Shown here: positions 2,717 through 49,927 of the stretch, piece by piece
How the letters are laid out: the number at the start of each line of letters is the position of its first letter
Numbering within the stretch: position 1 is the first letter of the stretch
DNA from: Klebsiella pneumoniae
Lineage (GTDB): Bacteria > Pseudomonadota > Gammaproteobacteria > Eutrophobiales > Eutrophobiaceae
Direction: 5' to 3'
Length of the DNA: 64,000 nucleotides
NCBI GenBank assembly: GCA_945878555.1
Contig: CAMDWI010000010.1
Span: 6,559 to 70,558, forward strand
Notes under the pieces: generated by a model
What the model was told of the DNA's origin: nothing
What the model saw: only the letters and a program-made list of their open reading frames with translations
Database searches by the model: none
Made by a program: the position numbers and the translations under genes

Positions 2717-2775
2717 TTAACGTTAATTTCAGTTGGTTGTTTCAAGGGTTTTCCTTTTATTCAGGGGGTACGACG

Positions 2776-5417: not shown

Positions 5418-5532
5418 ATGACTCCCACCCGACTTTCTGTCGGGTCCACTGTCTGATCACGTGGAGATAGAAATCTATACCGGATAACTTATACTGCCTG
5501 CCTTGATTGAAAATCCGGGTCCGGACGGGAAA

Positions 5533-7388: not shown

Positions 7389-7473
7389 TCCGGTACGGTC
7401 CGGTGGTTTGCCCGCCCAAACCTTTTGAGCTAGTATCATTTACGGTGGTTTTTTCTATGAACGCGGGGGACAA

Positions 7474-10116: not shown

Positions 10117-10128
10117 CAGGAATGCACA

Positions 10129-17518: not shown

Positions 17519-17741
17519 GCGTATTAACATGGGCATGTCCCGCCATCCAGCCAAGTCTGCTTGATGCAGACACACCGTCCGGCTATAATCTTCAGGCTGA
17601 TAATGTCATCCATAACAAGACATTATGCACACTGAAAATCATCCCTTTCCCGTCCGGAACGATGATATTTCTCCAAGGTCAGCACTAGTCTGTACGGTCT
17701 GGTGCCTGCCGTTTAATCCAGAACAGAACGAGGAAGTACTC

Positions 17742-20494: not shown

Positions 20495-20678
20495 AGCTGA
20501 ATAACTGTTCTGAATTGCGCTAGAGTTAGGAATCAGCCGTCTGGCTATAATCGTTCAAGACACGCTGTGAATACATCCATGTACGCTCGGGCGCCGCATC
20601 CATGCGGCTAACGGTCTTTCACAATTATAGCCAGACGGCTGATGTAACCGTTAGACTGAAACAGTTATTTAGTATCTG

Positions 20679-21410: not shown

Positions 21411-21507
21411 AAATCATTCCATCAGGTTATTGTTTCAGGATGTGGTGTATCAGAATTCAGTATATTTAATGCGATGGATTTCGCAACCGCTCAGGACATG
21501 AAGATAC

Positions 21508-22209
21508 TCAACCCTGTACCTTGACCCTGATTTTGCCAAGTCCGTCGATACTGCCGATCATAACGTCACCTGGCAGCACCGCACTGACCCCTTCTGGTGT
21601 GCCCGTCATGATCAAATCGCCAGGCTGCAGACCCTCGTAACGCGTGAAGTGGGCAATTATCTCCGGCACCGACCAGGTGAGCTGGTTGATATTGGAAGAC
21701 TGACGGATCTGGCCGTTAACATCCAGACTTATCGCCGCGGCTGTCATTCTGCCGGTTTGTTCAGCCGGTAGTATCGGACCTATCGGCGCGGAATAGCTGA
21801 ACGATTTACCGGACTCCCAGGGTTGTCGATTGCTGCACGCCTCCAGCTGCAGGTCGCGGCGTGTCATATCCAGGCCAACCGCATAACCATAGATATGATC
21901 CCACGCATCGGCCTCGGCTATATTGCTGCCGCCCTGGCTGATGGCGACGACCAGTTCTATCTCATGGTGGAAGTTCCTGGTCATCGGCGGATAAGGAATT
22001 GATATTTCGTCAATCCCCGCCTCTACCAGCGCACTGGCAGGTTTCATGAAAAAGAACGGCGGTATCCTGCCGGGATCCATGCCCATTTCCCGGGCATGGG
22101 CCGCATAGTTTCGGCCTACGCAGATGATCCGGTTGATCGGAAAGCGTTCAGCCTTGCCAATAATCGGAAGACTGTGAATTCTGGCGGGTGGCACAACATA
22201 GTCGGGCAT
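21508..22209 (-). CDS. Fumarylacetoacetate-hydrolase (FAH) family protein (e.g. fumarylpyruvate hydrolase or 2-keto-4-pentenoate hydratase type)
   Basis: 233 aa with the FAH-fold signature RIICVGRNYAAHAREMG...FFFMKP...EIELVVAI; the size matches short FAH-family hydrolases. Confidence 0.75.
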   Translation of the reverse strand: MPDYVVPPARIHSLPIIGKAERFPINRIICVGRNYAAHAREMGMDPGRIPPFFFMKPASALVEAGIDEISIPYPPMTRNFHHEIELVVAISQGGSNIAEADAWDHIYGYAVGLDMTRRDLQLEACSNRQPWESGKSFSYSAPIGPILPAEQTGRMTAAAISLDVNGQIRQSSNINQLTWSVPEIIAHFTRYEGLQPGDLIMTGTPEGVSAVLPGDVMIGSIDGLGKIRVKVQG

Positions 22210-22286
22210 GGTCTACTCCAGGACAATTTCTTTAAACGGTTTTTTTGGCCCGGCATTATAAACCAGAGTGTTTGATAGACATACAA

Positions 22287-23327
22287 TCAATATGTCTGAA
22301 ACACTTGCTCAAGTCTGGTGGCGGCTACCTTGTGGGCGAGTGCCAGCATCAATAAAATTCTGGCCTTTTGCGGGGTCAGGTTATCAGCCGAGGTGAAACC
22401 CCGTCCAGTCTGAACCCTGCCTTTGCCACCCCGATGGCTCATTATCACAGCGATACCCTTATCACGGGCCGAGGCCAGTGCGATTTCCATTGCAGGTGAA
22501 GCAGACCCTGTCGCAAAACCGGCAACAATAATCCCCCGGGCACCGGCGGCGACAGCGGCCTCGACCAGCTCCGGTCCAGCATCCGCGTAGACATATACGA
22601 TATCAACGCGGGGCAGGTCAGCGGTTACGCGGACATCATCCAGCCGGAATTCACTGTTAGCAGTATGGCGCCCATAGGGCATCCGGTAAAAGCGAATCTG
22701 ATCGGGGTCGGTCAATCCGAGCACGCCGAGGTCACCGGAATTCCAGGTTTCGGTACGATAGCTGATGGTCTTGGTCACGTCGCGTGCCGCGTGGATCATA
22801 TCTCCCGCGACCAGCATGACACCACGACCACCTGCCTCCGGATGGGCGGCCACACGGATCGCATCGAACAGATTGCGTGAGCCATCCTCACTTAATGTAC
22901 CCCGTTGCCGTTGCGCACCGACAACAACAACCGGTTTGTCGGTATCGAGCACCAGATTCAGGAAGTAGGAGGTCTCTTCAGAGGTGTTGGATCCATGGGT
23001 GACGACGATACCGTCTATGTCCGGATTCGCATTCAACTGCTGCATGATGACCTTCGCCAGATCGATCCAGTTCTGGATACTGATTTCAGAACTGCCGATA
23101 CGGACGTAGTCGTGTACCTCGATATTGGCCACTGTGCCCAGCTGCGGGATCTGCGTCATGACGGTTTCCACTGACATACGCCCATCCGGTGAATTTGCGA
23201 TTGTGCCACCGGTCGCAATGATCTTTACCAATGGCCTGTCGGTGTTGTCCTGAGCGCGTGTAGGCGGCATGGCAAAAATTGTTATCGATAGCAACAACGT
23301 GGACAGCCTTGCAATATACGGTCTCAT
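22287..23327 (-). CDS. Periplasmic L-asparaginase (type II family)
   Basis: ORF 22287..23384. I prefer the ATG at 23327 because GGAGG lies 6 nt upstream on the minus strand. It gives the signal peptide MRPYIARLSTLLLSITIFAMPPTRAQ. The asparaginase threonine motif VKIIATGGTIANSPDG and a conserved GIVVTHGSNT... block are present. Confidence 0.85.
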   Translation of the reverse strand: MRPYIARLSTLLLSITIFAMPPTRAQDNTDRPLVKIIATGGTIANSPDGRMSVETVMTQIPQLGTVANIEVHDYVRIGSSEISIQNWIDLAKVIMQQLNANPDIDGIVVTHGSNTSEETSYFLNLVLDTDKPVVVVGAQRQRGTLSEDGSRNLFDAIRVAAHPEAGGRGVMLVAGDMIHAARDVTKTISYRTETWNSGDLGVLGLTDPDQIRFYRMPYGRHTANSEFRLDDVRVTADLPRVDIVYVYADAGPELVEAAVAAGARGIIVAGFATGSASPAMEIALASARDKGIAVIMSHRGGKGRVQTGRGFTSADNLTPQKARILLMLALAHKVAATRLEQVFQTY

Positions 23328-23555
23328 AAACGCCTCCGATAAACGGACCAGACTGCATCCAGGTTTAATGTGAGTATCGATCAACAGATTATCTGATTTT
23401 ACGACTGGTTCCTATCCTCAACTCCTTCAACGGTTTGCTATCAGCATACGCATACCATCTGTATGCCCGCTTTAATTAATGATAATCTCTGGTATTAAAT
23501 TAGCAACCGATCTGACCCGGCCGGGTCAAAGAGACTATAACAACAGGAGGGCAGG

Positions 23556-24645: not shown

Positions 24646-25164
24646 CTAGAATATCGAGTAACCGTTCCAGACCTGGTAGACCAGACCCTTGTTCAGGGCG
24701 ATGCTGAATACCTGTTCAAACAGCAGATAGATTGCAACGGTAACACTGACCGAGATGGTAAGAGATAGCCCCAGTTTTTCCTCGGCAACCATATGCAGCA
24801 GCATGAACATGAATATCATCATGCCGGCGTAATGGCCAACCAGAAATATCAGAACCAGCAACAATATCATCCAGGCAAAAAAACCGGCCACTCCATTAAA
24901 CTCGGTATATTTGCCAGTGATCATTTTATTGAATGCGAGTGCGATATCAGCAAATCCTGCCGCCTTGAACGACTTTTTTATCTGTATCGCAATCATAATC
25001 AACATCGGCACCAGGATGACAATCGGCGTCCTGGCCGAGACGAAGTCATAAGTCAGTGCCGAAGCAAAGGCACCTGCCATTAATGCGCCGATAAACAGGA
25101 TGAAACACAGGTCCAGTGCGGCCATGTGCCTGTCGGCCTGACCTTCTTTATGGTTATTTTCCAT
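24646..25164 (-). CDS. tctB: Tripartite tricarboxylate transporter small membrane subunit (TctB-like)
   Basis: 172-aa protein with 4 predicted TM helices. Its start overlaps the stop of the upstream tctA by 11 nt. The family is poorly conserved, so I assign it by size, topology and position. Confidence 0.55.
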   Translation of the reverse strand: MENNHKEGQADRHMAALDLCFILFIGALMAGAFASALTYDFVSARTPIVILVPMLIMIAIQIKKSFKAAGFADIALAFNKMITGKYTEFNGVAGFFAWMILLLVLIFLVGHYAGMMIFMFMLLHMVAEEKLGLSLTISVSVTVAIYLLFEQVFSIALNKGLVYQVWNGYSIF

Positions 25165-26668
25165 TTGCTGCCTCTTTTTTCTCTTGTATCAGTTTCCAGA
25201 TATTCCAGGCCATGAACACGACAGTGAATATCGCCAGCGTCAGTGGTACCGGGTCAAAGATGAAGTACGGGCCGGACAGCTGGAGCGCCAGATACAGGTT
25301 CTTCTCGATGGCAAATCCGAGAACGAAACCTATCAGCAGTGCAGCGCGCGAGTAACCCAGTTCCTTCATCAGGTAACCCACGATACCAAACACAACTGCC
25401 ACACCGATATCAAACCAGGCATGGTTGATTGCATACGCACCGGTCACAATCGTACAGATCAGTACGGGGACGATGATCTTTGCGCGGATAGCGGAGACCC
25501 GGGTCAACGGATTAATCAGGAACATGCCTCCGGCCATACCAAACAATGCACCTATCCAGATGGTATGGATCATGACAAACACAAGGTCAACATGGTCTGT
25601 TACCATCTTCGGACCGGTTTCAACTCCCATGATAAAGAAGCCTGCCAGCAGGATAGCCATTGACGAGCTGCCTGGTATACCGAACGCGAGTGTTGAACCC
25701 AGCGCACCGCCCTCAACACCGTTGACCGAGGCCTCCGGCGCGATGACACCTTTAACATTACCCTTGCCAAAGGTGTCCTTGTCTTTCGATATCTGTTTGG
25801 CATGGGCATAGCCTATAAATGAGGCCGATGCGCTTCCAAGTCCCGGGATAAGACCGAGGACAACACCAATTGCACTGCTGCGCATGACGATATTCCAGTT
25901 TGCAAAAGCGGCCCTGACGCCCTGAAATATCTGTTTCTGGGTTTCCCTGGCACTTAACGGAGCGCGATCCACCTTGCCGACCAACGATCCGCTTTTTGAC
26001 CATAACTCAAACATTTCGGATATGGCGAACAGTCCCAGAATGACGGCCACCAGGTCAACGCCGTCATGCAAGGCCAAAAGACCAAATGTAAAACGTTCCT
26101 GGTTGGTGACGTTGTCCAGTCCAACCATCGCCAGTAACAGGCCGGCCATTGCGGCGATGATACTCTTGAACAGATCCCCTTCTCCCAGTACCGATACAAA
26201 CGAGAGTGCGAGGAGGACAAGTACGAATATTTCAGCTGGGCCAAACAACAAAACAATGTAACGTAGCGCAGGAAGCAGCAAGGCGATGACCACGCAACCA
26301 AACAGGGCACCCAGGAAGCAGGCCGTCATGGCTGCCCCGACGGCGATACCGGTTTCACCCCTTTCGCGCATCGGTGTACCGTCAAACAAGGTTGGCACGC
26401 TGGTTCCGGTGCCAGGTATGCCAAACAGGATCGCTGTCAGACCACCACCTTGTGCCACGGTAGAATGTGCTCCGATCAGGAAGGCAACGCCAGTGGCCGG
26501 TTCCATCGTGTACAGAAACGGTATCAACATGGCCATCGCAAAATGTCCGCTCAGTCCCGGAATAACGCCGACGATAAACCCGAATATCGCACCACCCATC
26601 ATGTACGGTAATACATCCAGACTTATTGCCTGGAAGAACCCGCTGATCATCCCCTCAACTATACCCAT
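25154..26668 (-). CDS. tctA: Tripartite tricarboxylate transporter permease (TctA family)
   Basis: 504 aa and polytopic. The N-terminal motif GAIFGFIVGVIPGLSGHFAMAMLIPF and the internal repeat ...GIPGSSSMAILLAGF are typical of TctA. Confidence 0.85.
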   Translation of the reverse strand: MGIVEGMISGFFQAISLDVLPYMMGGAIFGFIVGVIPGLSGHFAMAMLIPFLYTMEPATGVAFLIGAHSTVAQGGGLTAILFGIPGTGTSVPTLFDGTPMRERGETGIAVGAAMTACFLGALFGCVVIALLLPALRYIVLLFGPAEIFVLVLLALSFVSVLGEGDLFKSIIAAMAGLLLAMVGLDNVTNQERFTFGLLALHDGVDLVAVILGLFAISEMFELWSKSGSLVGKVDRAPLSARETQKQIFQGVRAAFANWNIVMRSSAIGVVLGLIPGLGSASASFIGYAHAKQISKDKDTFGKGNVKGVIAPEASVNGVEGGALGSTLAFGIPGSSSMAILLAGFFIMGVETGPKMVTDHVDLVFVMIHTIWIGALFGMAGGMFLINPLTRVSAIRAKIIVPVLICTIVTGAYAINHAWFDIGVAVVFGIVGYLMKELGYSRAALLIGFVLGFAIEKNLYLALQLSGPYFIFDPVPLTLAIFTVVFMAWNIWKLIQEKKEAANGK

Positions 26669-26769
26669 AGTGCAGTCCCTGTTTTAAGTATGTAACTGGA
26701 AGTGAAATCATCATAAGAATTAACTGAAAAATCTCCCCCGACGAAATTGAAATATGATTCTGATTAATC

Positions 26770-27837
26770 CTATAACTGGCCGTTAATCGCCTTCACGAAA
26801 AGATCCTTGATGTCCGGGGGCATGTTCGTGGCGTTATTGGTAATTTCATGGATCTCCGCACCCGAGGCGTAGTCAAACAGCCTGCCGGTACGCAGGCCCA
26901 GTGCAATCAATTCAGGGTCATGCATCGCCTTGTCAAAAGCGTCCCGCAGGAACGCCAGTCTGTTTTCCGGTGTACCGGGTGGTGCGGCAACTGATCGGCC
27001 AACTGCAATCAGTGCATCCCAGGCCTTGAGGATTTCACGAGTGCGCTGGGGATTGTCGGTAATATCTGCAAATTCAAAAACGGCCGGTACATCCGGAAGC
27101 GCATCCATTCGCTTGCTGCCACTCTGCAACATAACAATCTCGGCACCGCCATCAATACCTTCTTCTGCGCTACCGTATGACCCCCATGTACCTTTGATGT
27201 TACCGCGCAGCATTTCCTGGCGCACGACGGATGAACTGTCAAAACCATGAATGATCTCCACATTCATTTTAAATGCCTCTTTGGTGATCACGGCATCTAC
27301 ATAGGTACTGCCACCAAGTCCCGTCGCGCCAATCTTCACAGGGGCAGGACTCTTGACGATATCTGCAAATGTATTAAAGCCGGCCGCCTTCGACATGACC
27401 AATACGCGTGGGTCAGCGACGATGCGCCCGAGGTACGCGAACTTATCAAGCTCGTAATTGGCACCTTTGACGCCAGCCAATTCGCTGGTTACCAGCGCAC
27501 TGCCATTGATCATGCCGATAACCAGACCGTCATTCGGTGCTATGTAAAGTTCATTGACACCTTTCATGCCACCGGCACCGGGAAGGTTTTCTACATCAAC
27601 ACGCGCACCGGTGTATTTCCGCAGGTACGGTGACAGCAAACGGGCGTATTCATCATAACCACCACCCGGTGCATAAGGAATAATCCAGGTAATAATCTGT
27701 CCCTTGAAGAAGGCAGCCACATCCTCGTTTTCATCGTGGACTACACCCTGGTTTCTGATCGTACCAACCACGAGTAATACACCGATCACAGCAAAGATCG
27801 TGACGAGACTGATCGCAATTTTCTTGTTCATAGGCAA
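26770..27837 (-). CDS. tctC: Tripartite tricarboxylate transporter substrate-binding protein (TctC/Bug family)
   Basis: 355 aa with an N-terminal anchor/signal. The motif IIPYAPGGGYDEYARLL matches the conserved Bug/TctC N-lobe (PGGxxD). It is divergent from the amidohydrolase at 28069. Confidence 0.8.
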   Translation of the reverse strand: MPMNKKIAISLVTIFAVIGVLLVVGTIRNQGVVHDENEDVAAFFKGQIITWIIPYAPGGGYDEYARLLSPYLRKYTGARVDVENLPGAGGMKGVNELYIAPNDGLVIGMINGSALVTSELAGVKGANYELDKFAYLGRIVADPRVLVMSKAAGFNTFADIVKSPAPVKIGATGLGGSTYVDAVITKEAFKMNVEIIHGFDSSSVVRQEMLRGNIKGTWGSYGSAEEGIDGGAEIVMLQSGSKRMDALPDVPAVFEFADITDNPQRTREILKAWDALIAVGRSVAAPPGTPENRLAFLRDAFDKAMHDPELIALGLRTGRLFDYASGAEIHEITNNATNMPPDIKDLFVKAINGQL

Positions 27838-28068
27838 AACCCTGGATTATCGAAATATAATAATTATGAGAGTGGGACTTATTTTTGTCTGAATGATACA
27901 CATTAAAACAAACTCAAGCCAGCATATCACGGTAGCCAAATAGGGAAAAGTGAGGGAATCTGGTGAATAGGGTTTGCCGCTTACCGGGTGTGAGGACTAG
28001 AATAATTTCAGTAAAATTGTCCAGTATATATTCTGTAACATCGCATCGAATCAGAGGAGCAACAATAG

Positions 28069-29937
28069 ATGAAAATTTCGAGGGGGAGAGTCGCGACTTT
28101 AATGGCTACCGTTGCTTGTGTCGTGATGCCTGCAATAGCCGCCGCCCAGCCACAGCTGGTCATGAATTATGCTGACACCGTACTTTATAACGGCCAGATA
28201 ATTACGGCAGACGACGCCTTTTCCATCAAGGAGGCGATTGCCATACGCGATGGCAAGTTTCTCGCCGTAGGCAAAACCGACGAAATCATGCCGCTGGCAG
28301 GTCCTGAGACCCGCAAGATAGACCTGCAGGGGAAGTCGGTGACACCCGGTTTTATATATTCGGATGGAGATAATGCGGTTCCCGGTGGTGATCTGGTCAA
28401 GGATTCACAATGGAACGGCACGATCCAGGGGCAGATTGGTGGAGATACACTGGAACAGATTGAGCAGACCATCACCCACATTGCCGAGAATGAGGCGCTG
28501 CCTGGCGAGATCGTCTTTATCAAGACGGCAGATAACTGGGCCGGCAAGATACTGGAGACCTGGAACAAGGATACGCTGGACGAGTTATCCCCGAATAATC
28601 CCACCCTGCTTTTACCCGATTGTTGCTATGCAATAGCGAACAGCGCCCTGATTAAGTTGATGCTGGAAAAAGGATTCCCACCCGATCACCTGCATCTGAT
28701 GAAGGATGCTAACGGCAATATTACTGGTCAACTCGGGGCGAACGCCGTTGGTTTTGTCGGTCGCGAGCTACGCCCGTTTCCGCCACCGGAATGGATACAG
28801 GAGAATGGCGTCAAGGCAGCCAGGGAGATGATTAAGGAATACGCTGCTGAAGGAATTACGCTGGCGACTGGGCATATGACCGGACTGACAGTGCTGATCC
28901 TGAACCACCTTTTCAAGGACGGAACGCTGGCGATGCGTGTACACCCGGCACTCGATCTGATGCGTCAGAATGCCTTCCCGGAGCGGACGCTGGGCCGGGT
29001 GGGAAATCTGATGGACTTTGCCTTGTCTGATAAACGTGGGCCGATGGTACAGATTGTCGGTACAGCTGTGGGGCCACACACTGGCGCACCCGATGCCGCC
29101 ATCGGTCTGATGACGCTGGAGGCGAAGACCAACATCCTGCCGGAACTCGGCAAGAACGCACACGGTTATGACCGCTGGAGTGGTCAGTTCTTCAACGACA
29201 AGGGCACAATGCAACTGACCGACGAACAACGCAAGGACACCGAATACCATAACTTTATGCTCGCACGCCAGTACGGATATAACGTGAATGGTGTTCATAA
29301 TATGGGTAGCGGTGGCATCATGCTGTCAATGGAGCTGATCGTTGCGGCAGAAGCCCAGAAGCAGCTGTATGAACCAAATCTGTCGAGGGCACAGGCACTG
29401 GATCATAACATCGACTGGATGCCGGAGAATTTTGAATATTTCAAACAGCACAAGGAACTGCTGACAAAATATCTGCGGGTCGGTGTCAGCCTGAGTACCG
29501 CAATGAGACAACGCGATGCGAAGATGTTTGGTTATGAAGACGTCGTTTCCGCCCAGTATGGTTGGGACGGTCTGGAACGTATGGCACCGTTACGTTCGCT
29601 GTTGGAGGCCGGTATTCCGTTTCATATAGAAGGAACAGACCCGAAGAACAAGCCATTGTCCATTGTTAAGGACGCGGTCACGCGTATTGACCGCAAGGGC
29701 AGGGTTGTTGCCCCGCAAGAGGCATTGACGCGTGAGCAGGCTATCATGGCGATAACCCGTTGGGGTGCCAGGTTTATCAGTGCGGAACACCTGTTTGGCA
29801 CGATTGAGGCCGGGAAATATGCCGACCTCGTTGTATTTGATGGCGACGTGATGAAAGCGCCAATCGAGCAGATTGATCAGATCCGTCCGGTGTTGACACT
29901 GGTGGGTGGCGAGGTCGCCTTCGAAGCCAAACCGTAA
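28069..29937 (+). CDS. Secreted Amidohydro_3-like protein lacking the canonical N-terminal HxH metal motif
   Basis: 622 aa. RBS GAGGAG; signal peptide ending AIAAAQP. It is collinear with the other amidohydrolases and keeps the C-terminal GTIEAGKYADLVVFDGD signature. At the position of ...PGYIDTHNHI it reads ...PGFIYSDGDNA instead. Confidence 0.8.
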   Translation: MKISRGRVATLMATVACVVMPAIAAAQPQLVMNYADTVLYNGQIITADDAFSIKEAIAIRDGKFLAVGKTDEIMPLAGPETRKIDLQGKSVTPGFIYSDGDNAVPGGDLVKDSQWNGTIQGQIGGDTLEQIEQTITHIAENEALPGEIVFIKTADNWAGKILETWNKDTLDELSPNNPTLLLPDCCYAIANSALIKLMLEKGFPPDHLHLMKDANGNITGQLGANAVGFVGRELRPFPPPEWIQENGVKAAREMIKEYAAEGITLATGHMTGLTVLILNHLFKDGTLAMRVHPALDLMRQNAFPERTLGRVGNLMDFALSDKRGPMVQIVGTAVGPHTGAPDAAIGLMTLEAKTNILPELGKNAHGYDRWSGQFFNDKGTMQLTDEQRKDTEYHNFMLARQYGYNVNGVHNMGSGGIMLSMELIVAAEAQKQLYEPNLSRAQALDHNIDWMPENFEYFKQHKELLTKYLRVGVSLSTAMRQRDAKMFGYEDVVSAQYGWDGLERMAPLRSLLEAGIPFHIEGTDPKNKPLSIVKDAVTRIDRKGRVVAPQEALTREQAIMAITRWGARFISAEHLFGTIEAGKYADLVVFDGDVMKAPIEQIDQIRPVLTLVGGEVAFEAKP

Positions 29938-29956
29938 GGTTCAGAGAGGTCGAACA

Positions 29957-29992
29957 GGCCCTCACTTCCATGCGGGAGTGGGGGCTTTTTTA
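29957..29992. terminator. Terminator-like imperfect hairpin followed by a T-run, between convergent genes
   Basis: CCCTCACTTCC-atgcg-GGAGTGGGGG then CTTTTTTAT. It lies between the stop of 28069-29937 (+) and the stop of 29990-30370 (-). Confidence 0.45.
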
Positions 29993-30370
29993 TGTTGGTG
30001 ATTTCCTGAAAAACAGGCTGGCCAGGCCAAGACTGAACAGCATCAATACAGCCGTGAAAGGGGCCTTCATAGACTGTAACGGCAAAACTGGCTGTGTACC
30101 CGCAGCGCTGGTTATAGCAGGGGGCTCAAGACTTCCAGCAGAGGGACCACTGACTGCTTGTGCATTGGAGTCCGGTTTTGTTGTCGTATATTTACCAGTA
30201 ACCGGGTCGACATAGATCAGGTAGGCGGGTGTATCACGATCACTTGCAGCCGCCGGGCGTGGATAAATTGCGCCACACAATACCAGCAGCATCACCGACA
30301 GAAAAACAGCTGTCTGGACTACTCTGGACGAATGCTGTCCGTTATCAACAGACAGAAAGATCAAGCTCAT
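29990..30370 (-). CDS. Small secreted/anchored protein, amidohydrolase-associated family member B
   Basis: 126 aa. Its ATG overlaps the TGA of the upstream amidohydrolase (ATGA at 30367-30370). N-terminal signal/TM, then ...PAYLIYVDPVTGKYTTTKP, a Ser/Ala/Pro-rich linker, the C-terminal hydrophobic segment FTAVLMLFSLGLASLFF and a basic RK tail. Confidence 0.65.
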   Translation of the reverse strand: MSLIFLSVDNGQHSSRVVQTAVFLSVMLLVLCGAIYPRPAAASDRDTPAYLIYVDPVTGKYTTTKPDSNAQAVSGPSAGSLEPPAITSAAGTQPVLPLQSMKAPFTAVLMLFSLGLASLFFRKSPT

Positions 30371-32220
30371 TGCGCTGCCGATTCCCAGAGTTTGGCGTCA
30401 AATACCAGTTTACCCCCGATATAGGTCAGATCAATACCAAGCTTGTCGATGTCGGAATCCGCGACTGCTACAAAATCTCCATTGAGTACGCTGATATCAG
30501 CCCATTTCCCGGGTTCCAGCGAACCCAGTTCATCTTCTTCCCCGATAAATCGCGCAACATTGATCGTCAGCATCTTCAGCGCGGTCATCCGGTCTATCGC
30601 CTGATCGGCACCCCATACCTTGCCATTATGGTCGGTACGTGTCACAAACCGTTCTATCAGCCAGGTGGGATGGTTATGCGGATCGGTCCCTTCAATGTGC
30701 AAACTGTAGCCGCGAGCCAGCAGGTCCTTGACCGGCTGCATCGTGTGCATTTTTTCGCCATATTGAGATTCCAGCAACGGGCGACCGTTGACCGACATGC
30801 GCTGGTCGAAGATCTCCGGGCTGAGCGCCATGGCGACATTGTCCCGGTATTTGTCGATCAGGGGATAGTTCGACTCATGCCAGACCAGATTGTGATCAAA
30901 GGCATTCGGCTTGCGTGCCTTGAAATACGGCTTCACACTGGTATTGAAATTGTCGATGGCGAGCAGGTTGGTCCGCAGGGCCGCGCTACCCATGTTGTGG
31001 TTCCCGCTCATATTCCAGCCGTATTTCAACAGCAGGCTGACAGTATTGTAGTCGGTCTGGGCCTTCAGGTCGTCCGTCATATCGTCCCAGGTCAGGCCGG
31101 TCCAGACCTCGCCGGTCCATTTGTTCAGCCCACGTGGTGTACCACCAATCTCCGGGTCGACCTTCTCCTTGTCATCGATGGTCAGCATGCCGAACTGGCT
31201 GTTGGAACCGTCATCGACCGGGCCGGTGGCAGCACCCACGATCTTCACCATCGGGCCGCGTACCGCGTCTGTCAGCGCAAAATTGACCAGATTGCCGACC
31301 CGTTTCAGATACTGTTCTGCGAACGGATTCTGGCGAATGAAGTCATGTCCCGGATACACACGGATATCGAGCTTGCCATCATGAAACAGCGAGTTCAGCA
31401 GACTGGTGGTCAATCCACTCATATGACCGGTTATTGTCGTCACACCCACGGAGAGATAGCCGCGCAGTACAGCAACGGTTTCTTCGTGTGCCTTTTCGAT
31501 ATATTCCGGGCTGGGCCAGGGCCTGACCTGCCAACCGATAAATCCGGCAGCCTGCTGGAACAGCTGTCCTGTCGGTTTGCCGTCGGCGTCCTTGACGACA
31601 CCGAACATATTCGGGTCCAGACCGGATTCCATAGCACGCTCCATCATGGCACTGTTTACGACTGCGACGGAGTCATTATAAAACAGCGCAATCGGATGGT
31701 CCGGGGATACCTCATCGAGGTCATTTGCGGTCCATTCCTCCGCCTGCCGTGGTGAGGCCTTGGGCATGTTAATGAATACCGGTTCTTCGGGTCGTGCCTT
31801 CGCTATCACCTCGCCGATAGAGTTCAGTAACTCGTCCATTTTTGCGCCGGTGATACGTTCTGTCGAGAGGGCACCGTCCACCTGGGTCATCTTGTAGATA
31901 TCACCCGCCGGTACGGCGCTGTCGCCGTCGTTATAGATAAAACCTGGCGTAACGGTCCTGCCCGAGAGGTCGACCTTTTGCGTCTGTGGACCGGCCAGTT
32001 CGAGTATCTCGATTGTCTTGCCTGTAGCAAGCACACGACCGTCACGTACGGCAATGGCTTCGGTAATCGTATTGTTTTGATCCAGTGTCAGCACCTTGCC
32101 GTTGAACATGATCAGTTCAGGATATTTGATCAGGATTTGGGGCTGGGCATGGCCAACAGTGTTATACAAGAAAAACAGCAATATTGTAGTAATTGATAAC
32201 TTTACTGATGGTATATGCAT
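30367..32220 (-). CDS. Secreted Amidohydro_3-like protein lacking the canonical N-terminal HxH metal motif (paralog of 28069-29937)
   Basis: 617 aa with a signal peptide (..YNTVGHAQP). It reads ...PGFIYNDGDSAVPAG in place of HxH. The C-terminal signature GSLEPGKWADISVLNGD is present. It is about 50% identical to 28069-29937. Confidence 0.8.
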   Translation of the reverse strand: MHIPSVKLSITTILLFFLYNTVGHAQPQILIKYPELIMFNGKVLTLDQNNTITEAIAVRDGRVLATGKTIEILELAGPQTQKVDLSGRTVTPGFIYNDGDSAVPAGDIYKMTQVDGALSTERITGAKMDELLNSIGEVIAKARPEEPVFINMPKASPRQAEEWTANDLDEVSPDHPIALFYNDSVAVVNSAMMERAMESGLDPNMFGVVKDADGKPTGQLFQQAAGFIGWQVRPWPSPEYIEKAHEETVAVLRGYLSVGVTTITGHMSGLTTSLLNSLFHDGKLDIRVYPGHDFIRQNPFAEQYLKRVGNLVNFALTDAVRGPMVKIVGAATGPVDDGSNSQFGMLTIDDKEKVDPEIGGTPRGLNKWTGEVWTGLTWDDMTDDLKAQTDYNTVSLLLKYGWNMSGNHNMGSAALRTNLLAIDNFNTSVKPYFKARKPNAFDHNLVWHESNYPLIDKYRDNVAMALSPEIFDQRMSVNGRPLLESQYGEKMHTMQPVKDLLARGYSLHIEGTDPHNHPTWLIERFVTRTDHNGKVWGADQAIDRMTALKMLTINVARFIGEEDELGSLEPGKWADISVLNGDFVAVADSDIDKLGIDLTYIGGKLVFDAKLWESAAQ

Positions 32221-32528
32221 GACTGCGCCCCCCGGTTGTCAGGCTACTCAGATATGAAAGTTTGAAGGGCAGGTCTCGCCCCGCCACGAGACGATTGTAT
32301 GCCCTTGATAACTCGAGAACAGTAAGCATCATAATTTGACATGCCAGTCAGAGGCAAGGCCGCAATTTACGATAAATTTACGCAGGATTTGCTGGCGATT
32401 TGCTATAGTTGACACTGCATATCATGTTTAATAGTATCGTTGAACTGATCAGCCTGATTTATATCAAAAGTAATGAACTTATATCGTCCATTAAGCAATG
32501 TGTCCTGACGGGGGAACGAGTGTATAAA

Positions 32529-33476
32529 ATGAATTTCAAGAAGCTGTTTGCCAGCATCATTTTACTGGCGGTCTCAACATCCCCGACTTTTGCGGCCTTT
32601 CCGGAAAAGGATATCAAGGTCATTATCGGTGTCAGCCCGGGTGGCGGTTTTGACACCTATATGCGCGCACTTATACCGATACTCGAAAAGTATCTGGGTA
32701 ATGATGTAAATGTGCTGCCAATTAATTCGCCGGGTAGTGGTGGCAGGCGCGGCGCCCTTGAAACATTCAAGGCCAAACCGGACGGTTATACCATCGGCAT
32801 GTTTAATATGCCGGGTGTATTGATCCCGCAGTTAACGGAAAAAGATGTGGGCTATGATCTGGAAAAGATTACCTGGCTGGCCACTCTGGGTAACGACCCG
32901 TATGCATTTATCGTCAACAAGAACAGTGATCTGAAAAGTTTTGAGCAGGTTCTGGCACAAAAGTCGCCCATACTGTTTGGCGCGACCGGCCCATCATCAA
33001 CCTCCTATGTTGCCACGATAATAATGAATGAAACACTGGGTATCCCATACGAAGTGGTGACCGGGTACACCGGTAGCAGTGAATATGCGATGGGTGTGAT
33101 GCGGGGAGATGTGGTTGCCGCATTACTCAGCATGTCCACCGCGCGTGGTTATATCAAGTCTGGTGACGTGAGGGCACTGGCGATGATTGGTATGAAGAGC
33201 ACGGGTCCGGGGATTGCGGATGCCGACAGTCTGGGCAAGCCTGATCTCGGCAAACTGAATGTAGTCCGTATGATAGGCGCGCCTCCCGGTTTGCCGGCAG
33301 ACATCCGGGCTATCTATGAAAAGGCCTTTATGTCAGCGATGGCGGATCCTGAGTTTACCAAGTGGCTGGAGGCTACCGGAAATGATGCATCGCCTGCCGG
33401 TGGGGAGGCAACATCTGCGACCGTGAGTGGACTGGTCGAGTTCTACAATAAATATATAAATGTGTTGAAAAAGTAA
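32529..33476 (+). CDS. tctC: Tripartite tricarboxylate transporter substrate-binding protein (TctC/Bug family), second copy
   Basis: ORF 32409..33476. I prefer the ATG at 32529, which gives the signal peptide MNFKKLFASIILLAVSTSPTFAAF. The motif VIIGVSPGGGFDTYMRALIP is present. Confidence 0.8.
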   Translation: MNFKKLFASIILLAVSTSPTFAAFPEKDIKVIIGVSPGGGFDTYMRALIPILEKYLGNDVNVLPINSPGSGGRRGALETFKAKPDGYTIGMFNMPGVLIPQLTEKDVGYDLEKITWLATLGNDPYAFIVNKNSDLKSFEQVLAQKSPILFGATGPSSTSYVATIIMNETLGIPYEVVTGYTGSSEYAMGVMRGDVVAALLSMSTARGYIKSGDVRALAMIGMKSTGPGIADADSLGKPDLGKLNVVRMIGAPPGLPADIRAIYEKAFMSAMADPEFTKWLEATGNDASPAGGEATSATVSGLVEFYNKYINVLKK

Positions 33477-33565
33477 ACCAGGTTCACGCGGTCACCCTAC
33501 AGTTGTGCCTCGACACAATTTGTCACTCCGCATTTCTATAAACCCGGACACACGGAAACAAACTG

Positions 33566-35059
33566 ATGCTAGAAGTATTGCTTGGCGCAACTGCTGATAT
33601 TTTCACGCTGAGAACCCTGTTATTCCTGCAACTCGGAGTGTTTGCAGGGTTGATCGTCGGTGTTATACCCGGGCTCGGCGGAACAACGGCACTCGCTATC
33701 CTGATGCCTCTCACATTCGGGATGGAACCTATCGATGCATTTGCCATGGCGGGTGGCATCATGGGATCTGTAGGCGCGGGTGGGGCTATCACGGCGATCC
33801 TGATTAATGCGCCTGGTACTGCACCGAATGCGGCGACCTGCCTTGATGGTTATCCGATGGCCCGTCAGGGACGGGCCGCAGAGGCGCTTGGTGCCACATC
33901 TACTGCCTCACCGCTCGGCGGCCTGTTTGGCATGGTGACCTTGTTAATGGTGTTGCCATTTGCCAAGGAGCTGGTGCTGATGTTCAGACCGCCGGAGTTT
34001 TTCCTGCTGGCTGTGTTTGGACTGATATCAATAGCACTGTCTGACACCCGGAATATGATCAGGGGGTTGGTCACTTCCTGTGTGGGGCTGATGCTGGCCT
34101 TTGTTGGCTACGACTCTGTCAGTGGTGGTGACAGGTTCACGCTCGGCTCTGACTACCTGTGGGACGGTATTCCGCTGGTCCCGTCGTTGATAGGCCTGTT
34201 TGCGATGACCGAGATGATACGTCTGACCATATCCGGTGGCAGTGTGGCGGCAGATGCAGACTCTGTCCAGTTGGATGGGATCATGAAGGGTGTGTGGGCA
34301 ACATTTCGGCACTGGAAAGTTGTGTTACGCGGCTCGATCATCGGCACGATAGTAGGCGCAGTACCCGGTGCCGGCGGGACAGTTGCGACTTTCATCTCCT
34401 ATTCTTCGACGAAAAACTCGGACCCGCACCCGGAGACGTTTGGTACGGGACGTATTGAGGGCGTAATCGCGCCGGAGGCCGCAAATAATGCCAAGGACAG
34501 CGGTGCGCTGTTACCAACACTGGCCTTTGGTATCCCGGGCAGTTCAGAAATGGCGGTATTTCTGGGAATTCTGGTTTTACACGGTATGCAGCCGGGACCG
34601 ACGATGCTGCTGGAGCATGAACGCGAGATTTATGGACTGATTATAGCGTTGACCCTGAGTGCTGTCCTGTCTGCTGTGCTGGCGCTGGTACTGATACGCT
34701 GGCTGGCACTGATAACATTGGTTAAAGGCCAGATCCTGGCACCGATAGTGATTATTACCAGTCTGGTCGGTGCCTATGCTATTGATTCGCGGCCGGGTGA
34801 TGTGATGGTTGCAGCGGGCATGGGTGTTATTGGTTATCTGATGGTGCGCTTCCATTATCCACGCCTGCCTCTGGTGATAGCACTGGTACTCGGAGAGACC
34901 GCCGAGCGTGGCTTTATGCAGTCGATGATGATAGGCCGGGGTAGCTGGGGCATTTTTGTCTCCTCGCCTGTCTCCATCATTATGGTGTTATTGATCGTAA
35001 TAAGCTTGTTGTGGTGGTTGGTACCTGTGACCCGGAACTGGCTGCGAGGGGAGAAATAA
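33566..35059 (+). CDS. tctA: Tripartite tricarboxylate transporter permease (TctA family), second copy
   Basis: 497 aa and polytopic, with GLIVGVIPGLGGTTALAILMPLTFGM and GIPGSSEMAVFLGIL repeats; it is homologous to 25154-26668. Confidence 0.85.
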   Translation: MLEVLLGATADIFTLRTLLFLQLGVFAGLIVGVIPGLGGTTALAILMPLTFGMEPIDAFAMAGGIMGSVGAGGAITAILINAPGTAPNAATCLDGYPMARQGRAAEALGATSTASPLGGLFGMVTLLMVLPFAKELVLMFRPPEFFLLAVFGLISIALSDTRNMIRGLVTSCVGLMLAFVGYDSVSGGDRFTLGSDYLWDGIPLVPSLIGLFAMTEMIRLTISGGSVAADADSVQLDGIMKGVWATFRHWKVVLRGSIIGTIVGAVPGAGGTVATFISYSSTKNSDPHPETFGTGRIEGVIAPEAANNAKDSGALLPTLAFGIPGSSEMAVFLGILVLHGMQPGPTMLLEHEREIYGLIIALTLSAVLSAVLALVLIRWLALITLVKGQILAPIVIITSLVGAYAIDSRPGDVMVAAGMGVIGYLMVRFHYPRLPLVIALVLGETAERGFMQSMMIGRGSWGIFVSSPVSIIMVLLIVISLLWWLVPVTRNWLRGEK

Positions 35060-35060
35060 T

Positions 35061-35522
35061 ATGAGTACACAACGTACAGGCAGGTTTATTAATATGCTGC
35101 CTTCATTATTGCTCGCCGCATTTGTGCTCGCCTATCTGGTCACCGGATACCAGACACTGGAGGCAGAGTCGCGTCAGGTGCCAATTATGACTGCCTGGAT
35201 TACCCTTTTCTTGCTGGCGCTGGATTTGTTTACCAGTTGGAAGGGTGGGAATGAGGAGAACCATAAGAAGACTGAGGTAGACCTTCCCCTGTTTATCGAG
35301 CTCCGGGCACCGCTGTCTCTGTTGGCGCTCATCGTAATGATCTACTTTGTCGGGTTCTATATTGGTGGCAGCATCTATCTGGTGCTCGCCTTGTGCTGGT
35401 TGGGTGATCAGAAGCTGCGGTTTTCTATCATTACAACAGTAATTACATTTTTGTCCATCTATCTGTTGTTTGAGAAGGGCTTGTCGTTTCAGCTGTTTCG
35501 GGGCGTCCTGTTAGCCAGTTGA
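35061..35522 (+). CDS. tctB: TctB-like small membrane subunit, second copy
   Basis: 153 aa with 4 TM helices. It starts 2 nt after the tctA stop (TAATATG). Confidence 0.55.
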   Translation: MSTQRTGRFINMLPSLLLAAFVLAYLVTGYQTLEAESRQVPIMTAWITLFLLALDLFTSWKGGNEENHKKTEVDLPLFIELRAPLSLLALIVMIYFVGFYIGGSIYLVLALCWLGDQKLRFSIITTVITFLSIYLLFEKGLSFQLFRGVLLAS

Positions 35523-35572: not shown

Positions 35573-37069
35573 CTACTTATCGACTACGAAATAACCACCT
35601 TTGATAGCCTGGTCCCACTGCTCAAATACGGCTGGACCTACCCCGAATTTCACCCCATCGACAAACTCACCTGACATGTAGCCGTGTGTGCCGTAGGGAT
35701 ACTGTGTTAGTGACACCCTGGGTGCCGGCTGCATCTTTTTAAACAGGGGGATGATCACTTCTTCGTAGACATCCCGGCTGTGGTCCCGGCTATGGGCGGT
35801 GATCTGGAACATGATCGGCGGTACCGGTTTTACCCCGGCGCCTTTCAGTTCGGTTTTAAGCCCGACATAGTGTTCAACCATAGTCTCGGTCTCTTCCTCG
35901 TCCAGATTCAGCCGTTTTGCGGTGACACGTGCGGCCTCGCGTAATGAATCTTCGATGTCATGTGTGACCACATATTCAGCCTTGAATTCAGGGCGGGGCT
36001 GTACATCGCCCCAGTCCTCAAGGATGTCTTCCATGATCATCGGTAGCCGCATCATTGCCTCCGGGCCCTCCTGGCCCAGCAGTTCTGGACCGACATAGCG
36101 CGCATCATCACGCCAGCTGCGTATATACAGGTCGTTAAACGGGTCAGTACGCGACTCCAGACCATAGTCATCAACGACACGTTCATATCCATCAATCTTG
36201 CCCAATTCACCGCCCCAGGCATGTTTGGCGCGATTGATATAGCCAAACGAGGAGTTTTCCACGGCCAGAACACCGGCGATATTCGGTACGCGTTGTGACA
36301 GCATCATCGTGAATGGACCGCCGGTTGAGTGGCCATGTACATAGACGGAGTATTCGCCTTCAGGAAAATGCTTACGCATGACCGCGATACCGCCCTGCTC
36401 AAATGCAATCGGCCATCCGGCCATCCGGTTATAGAAGTTTGTTCCCGGCTTTGCCCTCGCCAGTGTGCGAATGCCATAACGCGGACGCTGTTCATGGTCT
36501 TCAACGATATCGTACTGGTCGCGCGTGATGTATTCGCCCTGTAACCAGATGGGGGTGCGGACCTCGAGTGAATACTTGTGATGGTCATAAGCGGTCACGT
36601 TCCTGCCCGGCCAGTCCCGGCTCTCTGTATGGAAGGCATGGCGCCCGGGGTAACTCATGCTGATGACCTTATAGCCAAGTTTGCGCGCAAGCAGACTGGC
36701 CTGACGGTGCATCGACTTGAAATCACCCGAACCACCGTGTAACAGATATATGCCTATCTTCTTGCCATCTGCACCGGTGGGTATTTTTGATGGGTCTTCA
36801 GGTTCATGTACCGATATACCAATGTCCCAGTCCATACCTACTGCATTTATGCGTACGATGTCCTCAACATATCCCTTCTCACCGCCCTTCAGTGGCAAAT
36901 CAGGACGAGACATGAAATTCCGAATCATGGCCTGGGTGTCCTCTTCTGCAATATCGCTGGGTGGCACATAGCGTTGGGCAAGGGTGGGTAGGGACAGGGT
37001 AATAATTATCAATGAGCAGAGTACCCTGGCCAGGGAGGGCCATAATACTGCTTTGGGTTGATTGGACAT
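35573..37069 (-). CDS. Secreted alpha/beta-fold hydrolase
   Basis: 498 aa with a signal peptide (..LSLPTLAQ). It has the nucleophile elbow VHGHSTGGPF (GxSxG) and an HGGSGD block typical of alpha/beta hydrolases. Confidence 0.7.
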   Translation of the reverse strand: MSNQPKAVLWPSLARVLCSLIIITLSLPTLAQRYVPPSDIAEEDTQAMIRNFMSRPDLPLKGGEKGYVEDIVRINAVGMDWDIGISVHEPEDPSKIPTGADGKKIGIYLLHGGSGDFKSMHRQASLLARKLGYKVISMSYPGRHAFHTESRDWPGRNVTAYDHHKYSLEVRTPIWLQGEYITRDQYDIVEDHEQRPRYGIRTLARAKPGTNFYNRMAGWPIAFEQGGIAVMRKHFPEGEYSVYVHGHSTGGPFTMMLSQRVPNIAGVLAVENSSFGYINRAKHAWGGELGKIDGYERVVDDYGLESRTDPFNDLYIRSWRDDARYVGPELLGQEGPEAMMRLPMIMEDILEDWGDVQPRPEFKAEYVVTHDIEDSLREAARVTAKRLNLDEEETETMVEHYVGLKTELKGAGVKPVPPIMFQITAHSRDHSRDVYEEVIIPLFKKMQPAPRVSLTQYPYGTHGYMSGEFVDGVKFGVGPAVFEQWDQAIKGGYFVVDK

Positions 37070-37289: not shown

Positions 37290-39905
37290 CTAGTTGTAGT
37301 TATATCTCAGCTGGATTCCGTAAGTCCGGAAAGAGTTCGAACTGATGGTTTCGTAAAGTATCGGATCCGGTAACAAATCAAATTCCGGGTAGTATTTGAT
37401 TCTTGGTTCGAGCAGGTTACGTCCGTATATGGACAGTTCCCAGGTATCATCCAGGTCAGCGATGCCCAGGCTGAGGTTCAGGTCGGAATGGGTCGGCATG
37501 CGGACAATCTGATCGAAGCTTTCGATATTGGTTACATAGCCGTCTGAATACTTGAACCGCCCGTTAAAGGTCATCTTGTAGCTGTCCAGGATCGGCCACC
37601 AGTAATCTGCGCCGATGGTGAACACCCATTCTGGCAGGCGTGGCAGTCTCTCTCCGGTACGGTCGATGGTATTTTCCAGGTCGTCATTTCCAACCAACGC
37701 AATCGACTCAGCAGCGCTGATACAAGGCCCACTATCGGCATTCACGGATTCAAAGGTGGTACAGCCCGCGTTGCTAAAGCTTCGCATCTTTCCGTCATAG
37801 ATGGCACCGTTAAAGCTCAGTGTCAGGCGGTCGGTAGCGGCAGCTAACAGGTCTGCCTCAAGGCCCTGTACCCGCAATTTGCCAGCGTTGACAGTCTGAC
37901 TGGCTACACCTGTATTGGTGACTACAGCGAGAGGCAGGGTAGTACCGATTTGCAGATTGTCGACGGTGGTACTGGAGGCCGAGACACCACCACGGGCGCG
38001 GCCGTCCCAGAAGGTTCCGCGTGCGCCAACCTCATACATGGTTGTCTTTTCCGGACCGAATACAAAGTTTTCCGGTTGCGGTGTACTCTTCAGTTCGACC
38101 TCGAACCCACCAGCCTTAAATGCTTCGGCATATTTGGCATACAGCGAAACATCTTCCATCGGGCGATAACGCAGTACAACCTGGGGATCGAAGAAGGTGC
38201 CGTCGTTCGTCGCGTCATTACGTGCGACACCGTCGGCTGGTGCATTGCGTTCCGGTGTCATCCCGATCGGGGTAGCGCCGACAAACCGTGAGTAGTTCGG
38301 GGTGGCAGTCAGACTGCGGAAGCGGTTATGAGTGGTCTCATTCGGTATGACAAATGGAGTTCCCGGTGCAAGTGGGTCGTCAAAGATCCACTCCTGAACG
38401 AACTGGATCTGTCCGCCGTGTTTTTTAACATCGGAGTAACGACCACCCAGGTCCAGTGACATCTTGTCATCAAAGAAGTTGAACGTTAGTGCCGCGAAGC
38501 CGCTGAGCCACTCTGCATCCTCGAATCCGACCGGATTACGTGCGGGCCTACGTACATTCGAACGCAGACCGATGGTCTTCAGGTCGAGGTCGTTGTTGTG
38601 ATAGTAGGCACCAATCATCCATTCGATCATGCCCCCGGTCGGCGAGCTGAGCTTCACTTCCTGACTCCACTGATCCAGAAATTCGGAACGGAAGGTGTAG
38701 TTCGACAGGAAGTATTGACCGCTGTTGTCTTCAGAGTTTTTGCGGACATAGCGGCTATAACCGGTTGTGGAACTCAGTTCTATATCGTTTGCGAAGGTGT
38801 ATCTCAAGTCGAGATAGCTGTCCCACGGGCTCAAATCGTCATGGGCCTCGATACTATCCGGACCCTGTGAACCCCAGGGCGAAGTGCGCATGTAGTCGGG
38901 AAGGAATCCGGACAGGTCGATGCTGGTCCTGTCTGAAGAGTTCAGGAAGACGAGCCCGTCGACTGCCGGATTCAGATATTCGAGAGACGGACGGATACCC
39001 CATTCGCCGAATTCTGCCGGTATCGGCTGGAAGTTTGCATTACTTAGCCCCGTTATTAACGTATGTCTTGCATAGCGTTCGGTTGGGATAGGATTCATAT
39101 CAGAGCCGATGCTGCGCGCGACCGCATTACCCTCTCCCTGGGTCTGCTTGTTGGCCATCTGGAATTTGGCAGTAGCCTGAAAATTTTCCGCTGGTGTCCA
39201 TTGAAGTATCGCCCGTCCCATGAATACCTGATATTTCGGGAAGGTATCGCCGGTAAGGATGTCTTTCATATAACCTGAGGATCGATCATATTTTCCGGCC
39301 ACGCGTATTCCCAGGGTATCGCTGATAGGGCCACCGACACCAAACTCAACAGCATTCTTGTCCTGGTTACCTGCTTCAGCACGTAGATTGCCTTCCCATG
39401 TAGAGGTAGGCTTACGCGTAGTAATACTGAATGCGCCGGCATTCGCGTTCTGTCCGAAATAGATCGGTTGGGGGCCGCGCAGGATTTCCACCCGCTCAGC
39501 GTCCAGAAATGCAGCCAGTATTTGTCCTGACCTTCCAAAGTGGATGCCATCAACAAAGGTAGGTGCAGACTGTTCCAGGGCCTGGTTGTTTCCAGCAGTA
39601 CCCACGCCGCGAATTGTGATATTAATTCTGTCTTGTCCCGCATCAATCGTGGCGCCAGGTGAAAACTGGGTAAGGTCTACCATGTCCCGGAAACCCTGTT
39701 TATCAATTTCAGCGCCGGTGAATGCCTCGATGGATATTGGCACTTCCTGAAGTGATTGTTCACGACGCTGGGCCGTTACGACAATTTCTTCCAGTGCCTG
39801 AGCCTGAACCTGAACCGATGGCACCGAGATAATTGCGCAGATGGCAGCGCCAATAATGGAACAGAATCTTGAACTGGATGGCTTTAGAAGCTTAGCCATA
39901 GACAT
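37290..39905 (-). CDS. TonB-dependent outer-membrane receptor (paralog of 14727-17450)
   Basis: 871 aa with a signal peptide. The plug-domain N-terminus is ALEEIVVTAQRREQSLQEVPISIEAFTG and the C-terminus ends ...RYNYN. Confidence 0.9.
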   Translation of the reverse strand: MSMAKLLKPSSSRFCSIIGAAICAIISVPSVQVQAQALEEIVVTAQRREQSLQEVPISIEAFTGAEIDKQGFRDMVDLTQFSPGATIDAGQDRINITIRGVGTAGNNQALEQSAPTFVDGIHFGRSGQILAAFLDAERVEILRGPQPIYFGQNANAGAFSITTRKPTSTWEGNLRAEAGNQDKNAVEFGVGGPISDTLGIRVAGKYDRSSGYMKDILTGDTFPKYQVFMGRAILQWTPAENFQATAKFQMANKQTQGEGNAVARSIGSDMNPIPTERYARHTLITGLSNANFQPIPAEFGEWGIRPSLEYLNPAVDGLVFLNSSDRTSIDLSGFLPDYMRTSPWGSQGPDSIEAHDDLSPWDSYLDLRYTFANDIELSSTTGYSRYVRKNSEDNSGQYFLSNYTFRSEFLDQWSQEVKLSSPTGGMIEWMIGAYYHNNDLDLKTIGLRSNVRRPARNPVGFEDAEWLSGFAALTFNFFDDKMSLDLGGRYSDVKKHGGQIQFVQEWIFDDPLAPGTPFVIPNETTHNRFRSLTATPNYSRFVGATPIGMTPERNAPADGVARNDATNDGTFFDPQVVLRYRPMEDVSLYAKYAEAFKAGGFEVELKSTPQPENFVFGPEKTTMYEVGARGTFWDGRARGGVSASSTTVDNLQIGTTLPLAVVTNTGVASQTVNAGKLRVQGLEADLLAAATDRLTLSFNGAIYDGKMRSFSNAGCTTFESVNADSGPCISAAESIALVGNDDLENTIDRTGERLPRLPEWVFTIGADYWWPILDSYKMTFNGRFKYSDGYVTNIESFDQIVRMPTHSDLNLSLGIADLDDTWELSIYGRNLLEPRIKYYPEFDLLPDPILYETISSNSFRTYGIQLRYNYN

Positions 39906-47289: not shown

Positions 47290-47291
47290 CC

Positions 47292-49918: not shown

Positions 49919-49927
49919 CAGGGCAGT

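Follow-up and report, generated by a model that had tools for sequence, protein, structure and literature searches.

A small-protein gene conserved beside secreted YtcJ-like amidohydrolases and its possible role as a membrane tether

Is a 126-codon open reading frame, which lies between two convergent amidohydrolase genes and whose start codon overlaps the stop codon of one of them, a functional partner of these enzymes or a coincidental neighbour? The question arose from the first-pass annotation of a 64,000-nucleotide stretch of DNA, here referred to as the window, and concerns the reading frame that we call B and the amidohydrolases AH617 and AH622 (Table 1). The layout described in that annotation is borne out, as B is placed between the two genes and both encode Amidohydro_3 proteins; the sequence also agrees with the annotated ATGA on the minus strand, the ATG of B and the TGA of AH617 forming a 4-nt overlap with three bases in common. 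The spacing between B and the stop codon of the convergent gene is indeed close, but the spacer measures 52 nt (29938–29989), the annotated 53 being the difference between the coordinates.

Table 1. Coordinates in the window of gene B, its protein segments and the neighbouring features.
Feature	Position	Strand	Basis or remarks
Small-protein gene B, 126 aa	29990..30370	-	ORF and translation; stop codon TAA 29990-29992
ATGA start/stop overlap	30367..30370	-	B ATG 30370-30368 over AH617 TGA 30369-30367
B signal peptide, residues 1-42	30245..30370	-	hydrophobic core 16-37; cleavage AAA/SD predicted
Conserved head SDRDTPAYLIYVDPVTGKYTTTKP, residues 43-66	30173..30244	-	almost invariant, 24 residues, predicted beta-hairpin
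Low-complexity stalk, residues 67-102	30065..30172	-	variable in sequence and length; pLDDT <50
C-terminal TM helix, residues 103-121, and basic tail RKSPT	29993..30064	-	hydropathy
AH617, 617 aa, secreted YtcJ-like amidohydrolase	30367..32220	-	Pfam Amidohydro_3 (PF07969) 1.6e-31
D-G-D in place of HxH, AH617	31921-31929	-	FIYNDGD, D98 and D100
AH622, 622 aa, convergent paralogue	28069..29937	+	Amidohydro_3 1.8e-30; 38% identical to AH617
D-G-D in place of HxH, AH622	28363-28371	+	FIYSDGD
Shared terminator hairpin and T-run	29956..29992		14-bp GC-rich stem 29956-29987, between convergent genes
Paralogue A, 144 aa	4875..5309	+	110 nt 3' of tandem amidohydrolases 492-2483, 2713-4764; family HMM 1e-27
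Paralogue C, 124 aa	43270..43644	+	73 nt 5' of 738-aa amidohydrolase 43718-45934
TctB-TctA-TctC genes, left arm	24646..27837	-	Pfam TctC, TctA above gathering cut-off; TctB 20.7 bits < 29.1
TctC-TctA-TctB genes, right arm	32409..35522	+	Pfam TctC, TctA, TctB

B is a real, conserved gene under purifying selection, which is strongest on the motif, here called the head, that follows the signal peptide. A search of 5.8 billion proteins returned 16 homologues of B, 61–100% identical and mostly 123–126 aa long, and in comparisons with four orthologues the dN/dS was 0.24–0.44 over the whole gene and 0.07–0.20 for the 26 codons after the signal peptide. B is already called as a gene in public records, and its relatives occur in MAGs labelled Gammaproteobacteria, one homologue being labelled Woeseiaceae. 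It could be argued that B is not a functional gene, or that its adjacency to the enzyme is coincidental, given that Pfam and NCBIfam scans of the small proteins yielded no match above cut-off and that ATGA overlaps are common in the window. However, with a conserved length, a dN/dS well below 1, a strongly constrained motif, about 210 related clusters and the strict synteny described below, we regard this as extremely improbable. Two antisense ORFs, 30229–31755 and 29970–30215, both on the plus strand, were taken as shadow ORFs of the minus-strand genes.

The overlap alone is ordinary, as 4-nt overlaps occur at 6 of the 34 same-strand junctions of the 64-kb window; what goes beyond chance is the conservation of the ORF as a gene and of the overlap at orthologous loci. 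Looking in related genomes for the same arrangement, as had been proposed, we found the ATGA in six lineages (the window, L002, L004, L006, L018 and L020), including L006, where it is in frame although the gene caller picked a downstream ATG, and a GTGA/TGATG overlap in a seventh, L022. By contrast, in the more distant orthologues L008, L009 and L014 the overlap is lost, the enzyme ending in TAA and the small gene following 5–23 nt later; the head encoded in L008 and L009 is ~51% identical to that of B. Across the ATGA lineages the last codon of AH617 varies between CAA, AAA and CGA, always ending in A and followed by TGA. Moreover, no Shine-Dalgarno sequence was found for B at the usual distance (−5 to −12), whereas AH622 and paralogue C have one, and this fits translation of B by re-initiation. 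The persistence of the ATGA despite the varying last codon of the enzyme, together with the missing Shine-Dalgarno sequence, supports co-transcription and coupling; thus, judging from the sequence, B is probably co-transcribed with AH617 and coupled to it by re-initiation within the ATGA clade. Roughly stoichiometric expression, which the first-pass annotation had also deduced from the overlap, goes beyond what these features support.

A terminator-like hairpin had also been annotated between B and the convergent amidohydrolase gene, and it was found as a 14-bp hairpin followed by a T-run, which includes the complement of the TAA of B. It is conserved in orthologues: its position is kept and the changes in its stem are compensatory in L002, L004, L006, L018 and L020, and A- and T-runs flank it on both sides in most of them. 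A GC-rich stem-loop, a U-run and compensatory changes are thus present, as in an intrinsic (bidirectional) terminator. In the window, the plus strand folds with −28.2 kcal/mol (z = −4.0) and carries T6, whereas the minus strand folds with −17.3 kcal/mol (z = −2.5) and has no U-run; because of this weaker fold and the missing U-run, the hairpin is here chiefly a terminator of the convergent plus-strand gene and a weak one for B. An Rfam scan of 27000–33500 gave no match.

The window contains two paralogues of B, namely A and C, with the same architecture. A profile search of 1.84 billion representative proteins returned 210 relatives at E ≤ 1e-3, almost all of 74–170 aa; four longer matches were aligned via multiple short stretches, and no enzyme fusions were seen among the 210. 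The absence of fusions and the narrow range of lengths argue for a dedicated small protein. The family, which amounts to about 210 clusters at 50% identity, is undescribed and is represented by a model in neither Pfam nor NCBIfam. A metagenome scan with the family alignment had three loci confirmed, the confirmation using the B-type sequence alone.

Wherever a family member was recovered together with its flanks, an Amidohydro_3 protein is encoded by the nearest same-strand gene; this holds in about 20 distinct loci and for three enzyme subfamilies. B-type loci account for about ten of them, and in every orthologous locus recovered the B orthologue is directly 3' of the enzyme gene, on the same strand; AH622 is present in every B-type locus with enough flanking sequence. 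C-type loci are seven, and C orthologues lie 5' of genes for Amidohydro_3 proteins of 736–739 aa in L010, L012, L023 and L025. Two further members, in L008 and L009, are located between or upstream of amidohydrolase genes. The distance to the enzyme gene ranges from −4 to +23 nt for the B type and from 35 to 92 nt for the C type, and is 110 nt for A. The pair also persists in changed surroundings, with an MFS transporter upstream in L023 and rearranged Tct genes in L008, L009 and L014.

The first-pass annotation had taken the tight coupling itself as a sign that the small protein is a functional partner. The small gene does accompany the enzyme at every orthologous locus recovered, but A and C are separated from their enzyme genes by 110 and 73 nt, so that tight coupling characterises one clade rather than the whole family. 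Partnership is better supported by the adjacency conserved across three enzyme subfamilies than by the ATGA itself. In short, the amidohydrolase has in the small gene a conserved companion rather than a chance neighbour, and the genomic case for partnership is strong. On the other hand, the partner is not universal: in L016 (GCA_038131795.1, a 2.5-Mb contig) an enzyme of the AH617 family with 59% identity and the DGD motif (6001–7830) adjoins an NMT1-like binding protein, with no small neighbour and no convergent paralogue at the locus, so that an enzyme of this family does not in general need a partner. Beside these modules we also observed two Bat-like operons (VWA, MoxR AAA+, DUF58, VWA/BatA) at 8078–13027 and 46270–51953, both on the plus strand and each 3' of an amidohydrolase/small-protein module; DUF58-VWA genes are likewise found 3' of the C-type pair in L010, L012, L023 and L025.

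The architecture of B suggests how such a companion could act. The signal peptide is of the Sec type, with a long variable n-region and a hydrophobic core; it is the most variable part of B (dN 0.33–0.92), and an AxA-type site can be read right before the invariant Ser-Asp in all orthologues. In the head, D55, P56, T58 and G59 are invariant, and D44, D46, I52, V54, T63 and P66 are at least 90% conserved, among 33 sequences of three subtypes; AlphaFold models it as a beta-hairpin formed by the strands YLIY and KYTT, with the turn DPVTG. The stalk is rich in Pro, Ala, Ser, Thr and Gln and is predicted to be disordered by AlphaFold; from the motif to the TM helix it spans 27–75 residues, with a median of 53, in 165 family members, in which the TM helix precedes a tail with an average net charge of +2.9. 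B is therefore predicted to be a type-I (N-out, C-in) single-pass inner-membrane protein. Two other readings were considered and rejected. B lacks a lipobox [LVI][ASTVI][GAS]C, as its LVLC has Leu at −1, and orthologues have Ser for Cys; since the Cys is not conserved, B is not a lipoprotein. Tat-inserted tail-anchored proteins are dealt with in a preprint (bioRxiv 10.1101/2023.11.02.564894); no motif of the S/T-R-R-x-F-L-K type could be read in B, AH617 or AH622.

All family members end in a hydrophobic helix with a basic cluster, as do secreted proteins that bear PEP-CTERM, GlyGly-CTERM or LPXTG signals, and the C-terminal segment could in principle be a cleavable sorting signal of this type, after whose removal the head and stalk would be passed to another envelope component. 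In line with this, a Pro is found at most 6 residues before the helix or in its first 3 in 62% of the members, PEP-CTERM Pfam models gave sub-threshold matches in 10 of 33 members, and paralogue A gave a weak GG_III-CTERM match (14.1 bits, cut-off 22). Nevertheless, none of the scores reached its curated cut-off (LPXTG 11.9 bits against 15.9; PEP-CTERM E ≥ 0.008), the family shows no conserved signature motif ahead of the helix, and the part of the window ORFs scanned against Pfam included neither an exosortase nor a rhombosortase family, so that cleavage at this end appears very unlikely.

The enzymes themselves belong to the YtcJ-like Amidohydro_3 family, with PF07969 scores of 110.8 bits for AH617 and 107.3 bits for AH622 (cut-off 29.7). 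All five Amidohydro_3 proteins of the window read as having a signal-peptide-like start and no membrane anchor of their own. AH617 was modelled by AlphaFold with a pLDDT of about 90 or higher, and its best Foldseek matches are 3IGH and 3ICJ (E = 8e-26; TM-score 0.52 by query and 0.67 by target), uncharacterised YtcJ-like hydrolases from Pyrococcus. They share with AH617 the Pfam family and the fold, a (beta/alpha)8 barrel with the composite beta domain, but are only 18–20% identical to it, and AH617 differs in having a signal peptide and an invariant D-G-D for HxH. A PDB sequence search with AH617 gave matches in terminal regions only; its family counts 463 matches at E ≤ 1e-10, and no characterised close relative was found among the PDB and structure matches.

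The strand-1 HxH metal ligands are absent from both AH617 and AH622. D98 and D100 of AH617 are invariant in 56 homologues, and the D-G-D aligns to the HGH of PDB 4GBD, whereas the enzymes paired with A (AH663 and AH683) and with C (AH738) keep HxH. The other ligands would be expected to be a Lys or Glu from strand 4, a His each from strands 5 and 6 and an Asp from strand 8; in AH617, with strands assigned by sequence, H408 and D442-H443 do not vary, conservation of K326 reaches at least 90%, and an EGTD lines up with the strand-8 G-TD of the PDB relatives. In E. coli NagA, QxN replaces HxH and the metal site is mononuclear (PMC6016474); as this enzyme is active, a member of the amidohydrolase superfamily can work without the strand-1 HxH. 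NagA differs from the enzymes described here in having QxN instead of DxD, in being cytoplasmic, in belonging to another subfamily and in having no partner protein. The D-G-D may represent either a novel variant of the metal site or, as in NagA, a mononuclear one.

An unusual metal site next to a protein with an acidic head raises the possibility that B acts as a maturation or metal-delivery factor, whose head would transiently bind the exported enzyme and aid metal loading or folding at the membrane, without being a stable subunit. The enzymes are metal-dependent hydrolases, D44 and D46 stand at the very N-terminus of the mature protein, and paralogue A is followed by a 370-aa membrane protein (5503–6615, plus strand) with HupE_UreJ_2 (3.9e-48) and DUF6702 domains, which belongs to a family linked to Ni/Co supply and may point to metal supply for periplasmic hydrolases. 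Yet small partners accompany both HxH-type (AH738, AH663, AH683) and DxD-type enzymes, which argues against a link between their role and the odd metal site; they have none of the His and Cys residues typical of metallochaperones, the HupE link is confined to one locus, and a long stalk with a permanent anchor fits a tether better. We therefore consider such a role unlikely.

The genes around the B locus form a mirror-image duplication (24646–35522), in which TctB-TctA-TctC and AH622 face the small gene with AH617 and TctC-TctA-TctB, and the whole arrangement is conserved in L002, L004 and L018. In both arms TctC, TctA and TctB lie in one operon, as expected for a tripartite tricarboxylate transporter, with the left TctB below cut-off. 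It is conceivable, therefore, that the small protein serves another partner and merely shares the operon with the enzyme, being an accessory or regulatory subunit of TctCBA or of a TonB-dependent receptor, or the stalk of a periplasmic sensor: B lies between two Tct operons, and C-type genes are often near genes for TonB-dependent receptors, EutA and cupins. Still, no neighbour other than the amidohydrolase is constant: A- and C-type members have no Tct genes beside them, and the TonB, cupin and EutA genes give way to an MFS gene in L023 and are missing from L025, so that we hold such a role to be rather unlikely.

As for the wider surroundings, the window contains three cupin proteins of ~400 aa (13256–14398, 17625–18857 and 41675–42895), two TonB-dependent receptors (14727–17450 and 37290–39905), an EutA-like protein (40088–41590) and a 498-aa protein without Pfam match (35573–37069), and this set recurs beside these amidohydrolase clusters in the MAGs L002, L004, L010, L016 and L024. 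A FAD-dependent aromatic-ring hydroxylase, a class II aldolase, an FAA-hydrolase-family protein and a periplasmic-type asparaginase adjoin the locus (18866–23384), the first three being syntenic in L002 and L004. At 56154–59986 on the plus strand, a DUF1592/DUF1588/DUF1585/DUF1587/DUF1595 (PSD-type) gene overlaps a DUF1552 (HXXSHH) gene by ATGA, and a gene for a 606-aa ankyrin-repeat protein follows at 60013–61833.

We tentatively favour, at a little less than an even chance, the reading that the small protein serves periplasmic amidohydrolases as a membrane tether or anchor subunit, with its head docking on the enzyme; a head on a long membrane-rooted stalk, encoded with a secreted enzyme lacking an anchor and beside inner-membrane uptake systems, speaks for it. 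According to this proposal, B would be transcribed with AH617 and its translation would start by re-initiation at the ATGA, so that it would be made only when AH617 is made. Sec export and cleavage by signal peptidase would leave the 24-residue acidic beta-hairpin at the new N-terminus, held in the periplasm on the flexible stalk of some 35–70 residues, which would be rooted in the inner membrane by the C-terminal helix with its positively charged tail in the cytoplasm. From these features we infer that the head would dock on the secreted YtcJ-like amidohydrolase, probably the AH617/AH622 pair, and that the otherwise soluble enzyme would be tethered at the periplasmic face of the inner membrane, beside the TctCBA transporters encoded on both sides, where the product of hydrolysis could be released at the site of uptake. 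In AlphaFold runs on fusions of the B ectodomain with each mature enzyme, the hairpin was present in both, and its block had a pLDDT of 70 with AH617 and 54 with AH622; this difference is small, the AH622 model was poorer overall, the peptide part had no alignment depth and the runs were read for pLDDT and secondary structure only.

A pure tether role leaves the conserved acidic D-x-D at the mature N-terminus unexplained. In a bolder version, the small proteins would be obligate trans-acting subunits in a hitherto unrecognised class of heteromeric, membrane-tethered enzymes of the amidohydrolase superfamily, and their free acidic head would insert into the enzyme to complete or gate its active or metal site; we give this a small chance. 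If it were true, abundant YtcJ enzymes of uncultured gammaproteobacteria would be inactive or mislocalised without their partner. More generally, there are many YtcJ-like Amidohydro_3 proteins, of which hardly any has a known function, and if a dedicated anchored partner exists, these enzymes would act at the surface of the inner membrane, coupled to uptake, and not free in the periplasm; heterologous expression and assays that omit the small gene may then fail or mislead, and a new small-protein family of about 210 clusters should be taken up in genome annotation. Within the amidohydrolase superfamily, the invariant change from HxH to DxD in AH617 and AH622 may in addition constitute a new variant of the metal site.

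In the literature searched, no small partner is described for YtcJ-like amidohydrolases, and the proposed tether can be compared with systems of other enzymes. In the [NiFe]-hydrogenases, the small subunits HyaA and HybO keep the catalytic subunit on the periplasmic side of the inner membrane by a single C-terminal TM helix, and the likeness to the role proposed for B lies in a co-expressed partner that anchors a periplasmic enzyme through such a helix. Anchors of the HyaA/HybO type, however, belong to large cofactor-bearing subunits that are exported folded by Tat, whereas B has 126 aa, a Sec-type signal peptide, no twin-arginine motif and conservation restricted to the 24-residue head; it shares no sequence similarity with them, and its partner is a hydrolase and not a redox enzyme. 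A second comparison is offered by AtzG, reportedly a 68-aa partner of the 1-carboxybiuret hydrolase AtzE, which is said to be encoded by a very small ORF beside the hydrolase gene that was missed in annotation and proved to be an obligate partner of the enzyme. AtzG resembles B in being an overlooked very small ORF beside a hydrolase gene; it differs in that both AtzG and AtzE are located in the cytoplasm, AtzE belongs to the amidase-signature enzymes and falls outside the amidohydrolase superfamily, and AtzG has neither signal peptide nor membrane helix and is unrelated to B in sequence. Thus, while neither system is homologous to the B family and AtzG is the looser parallel, the closest functional analogy is a C-tail-anchored small subunit of a periplasmic enzyme.
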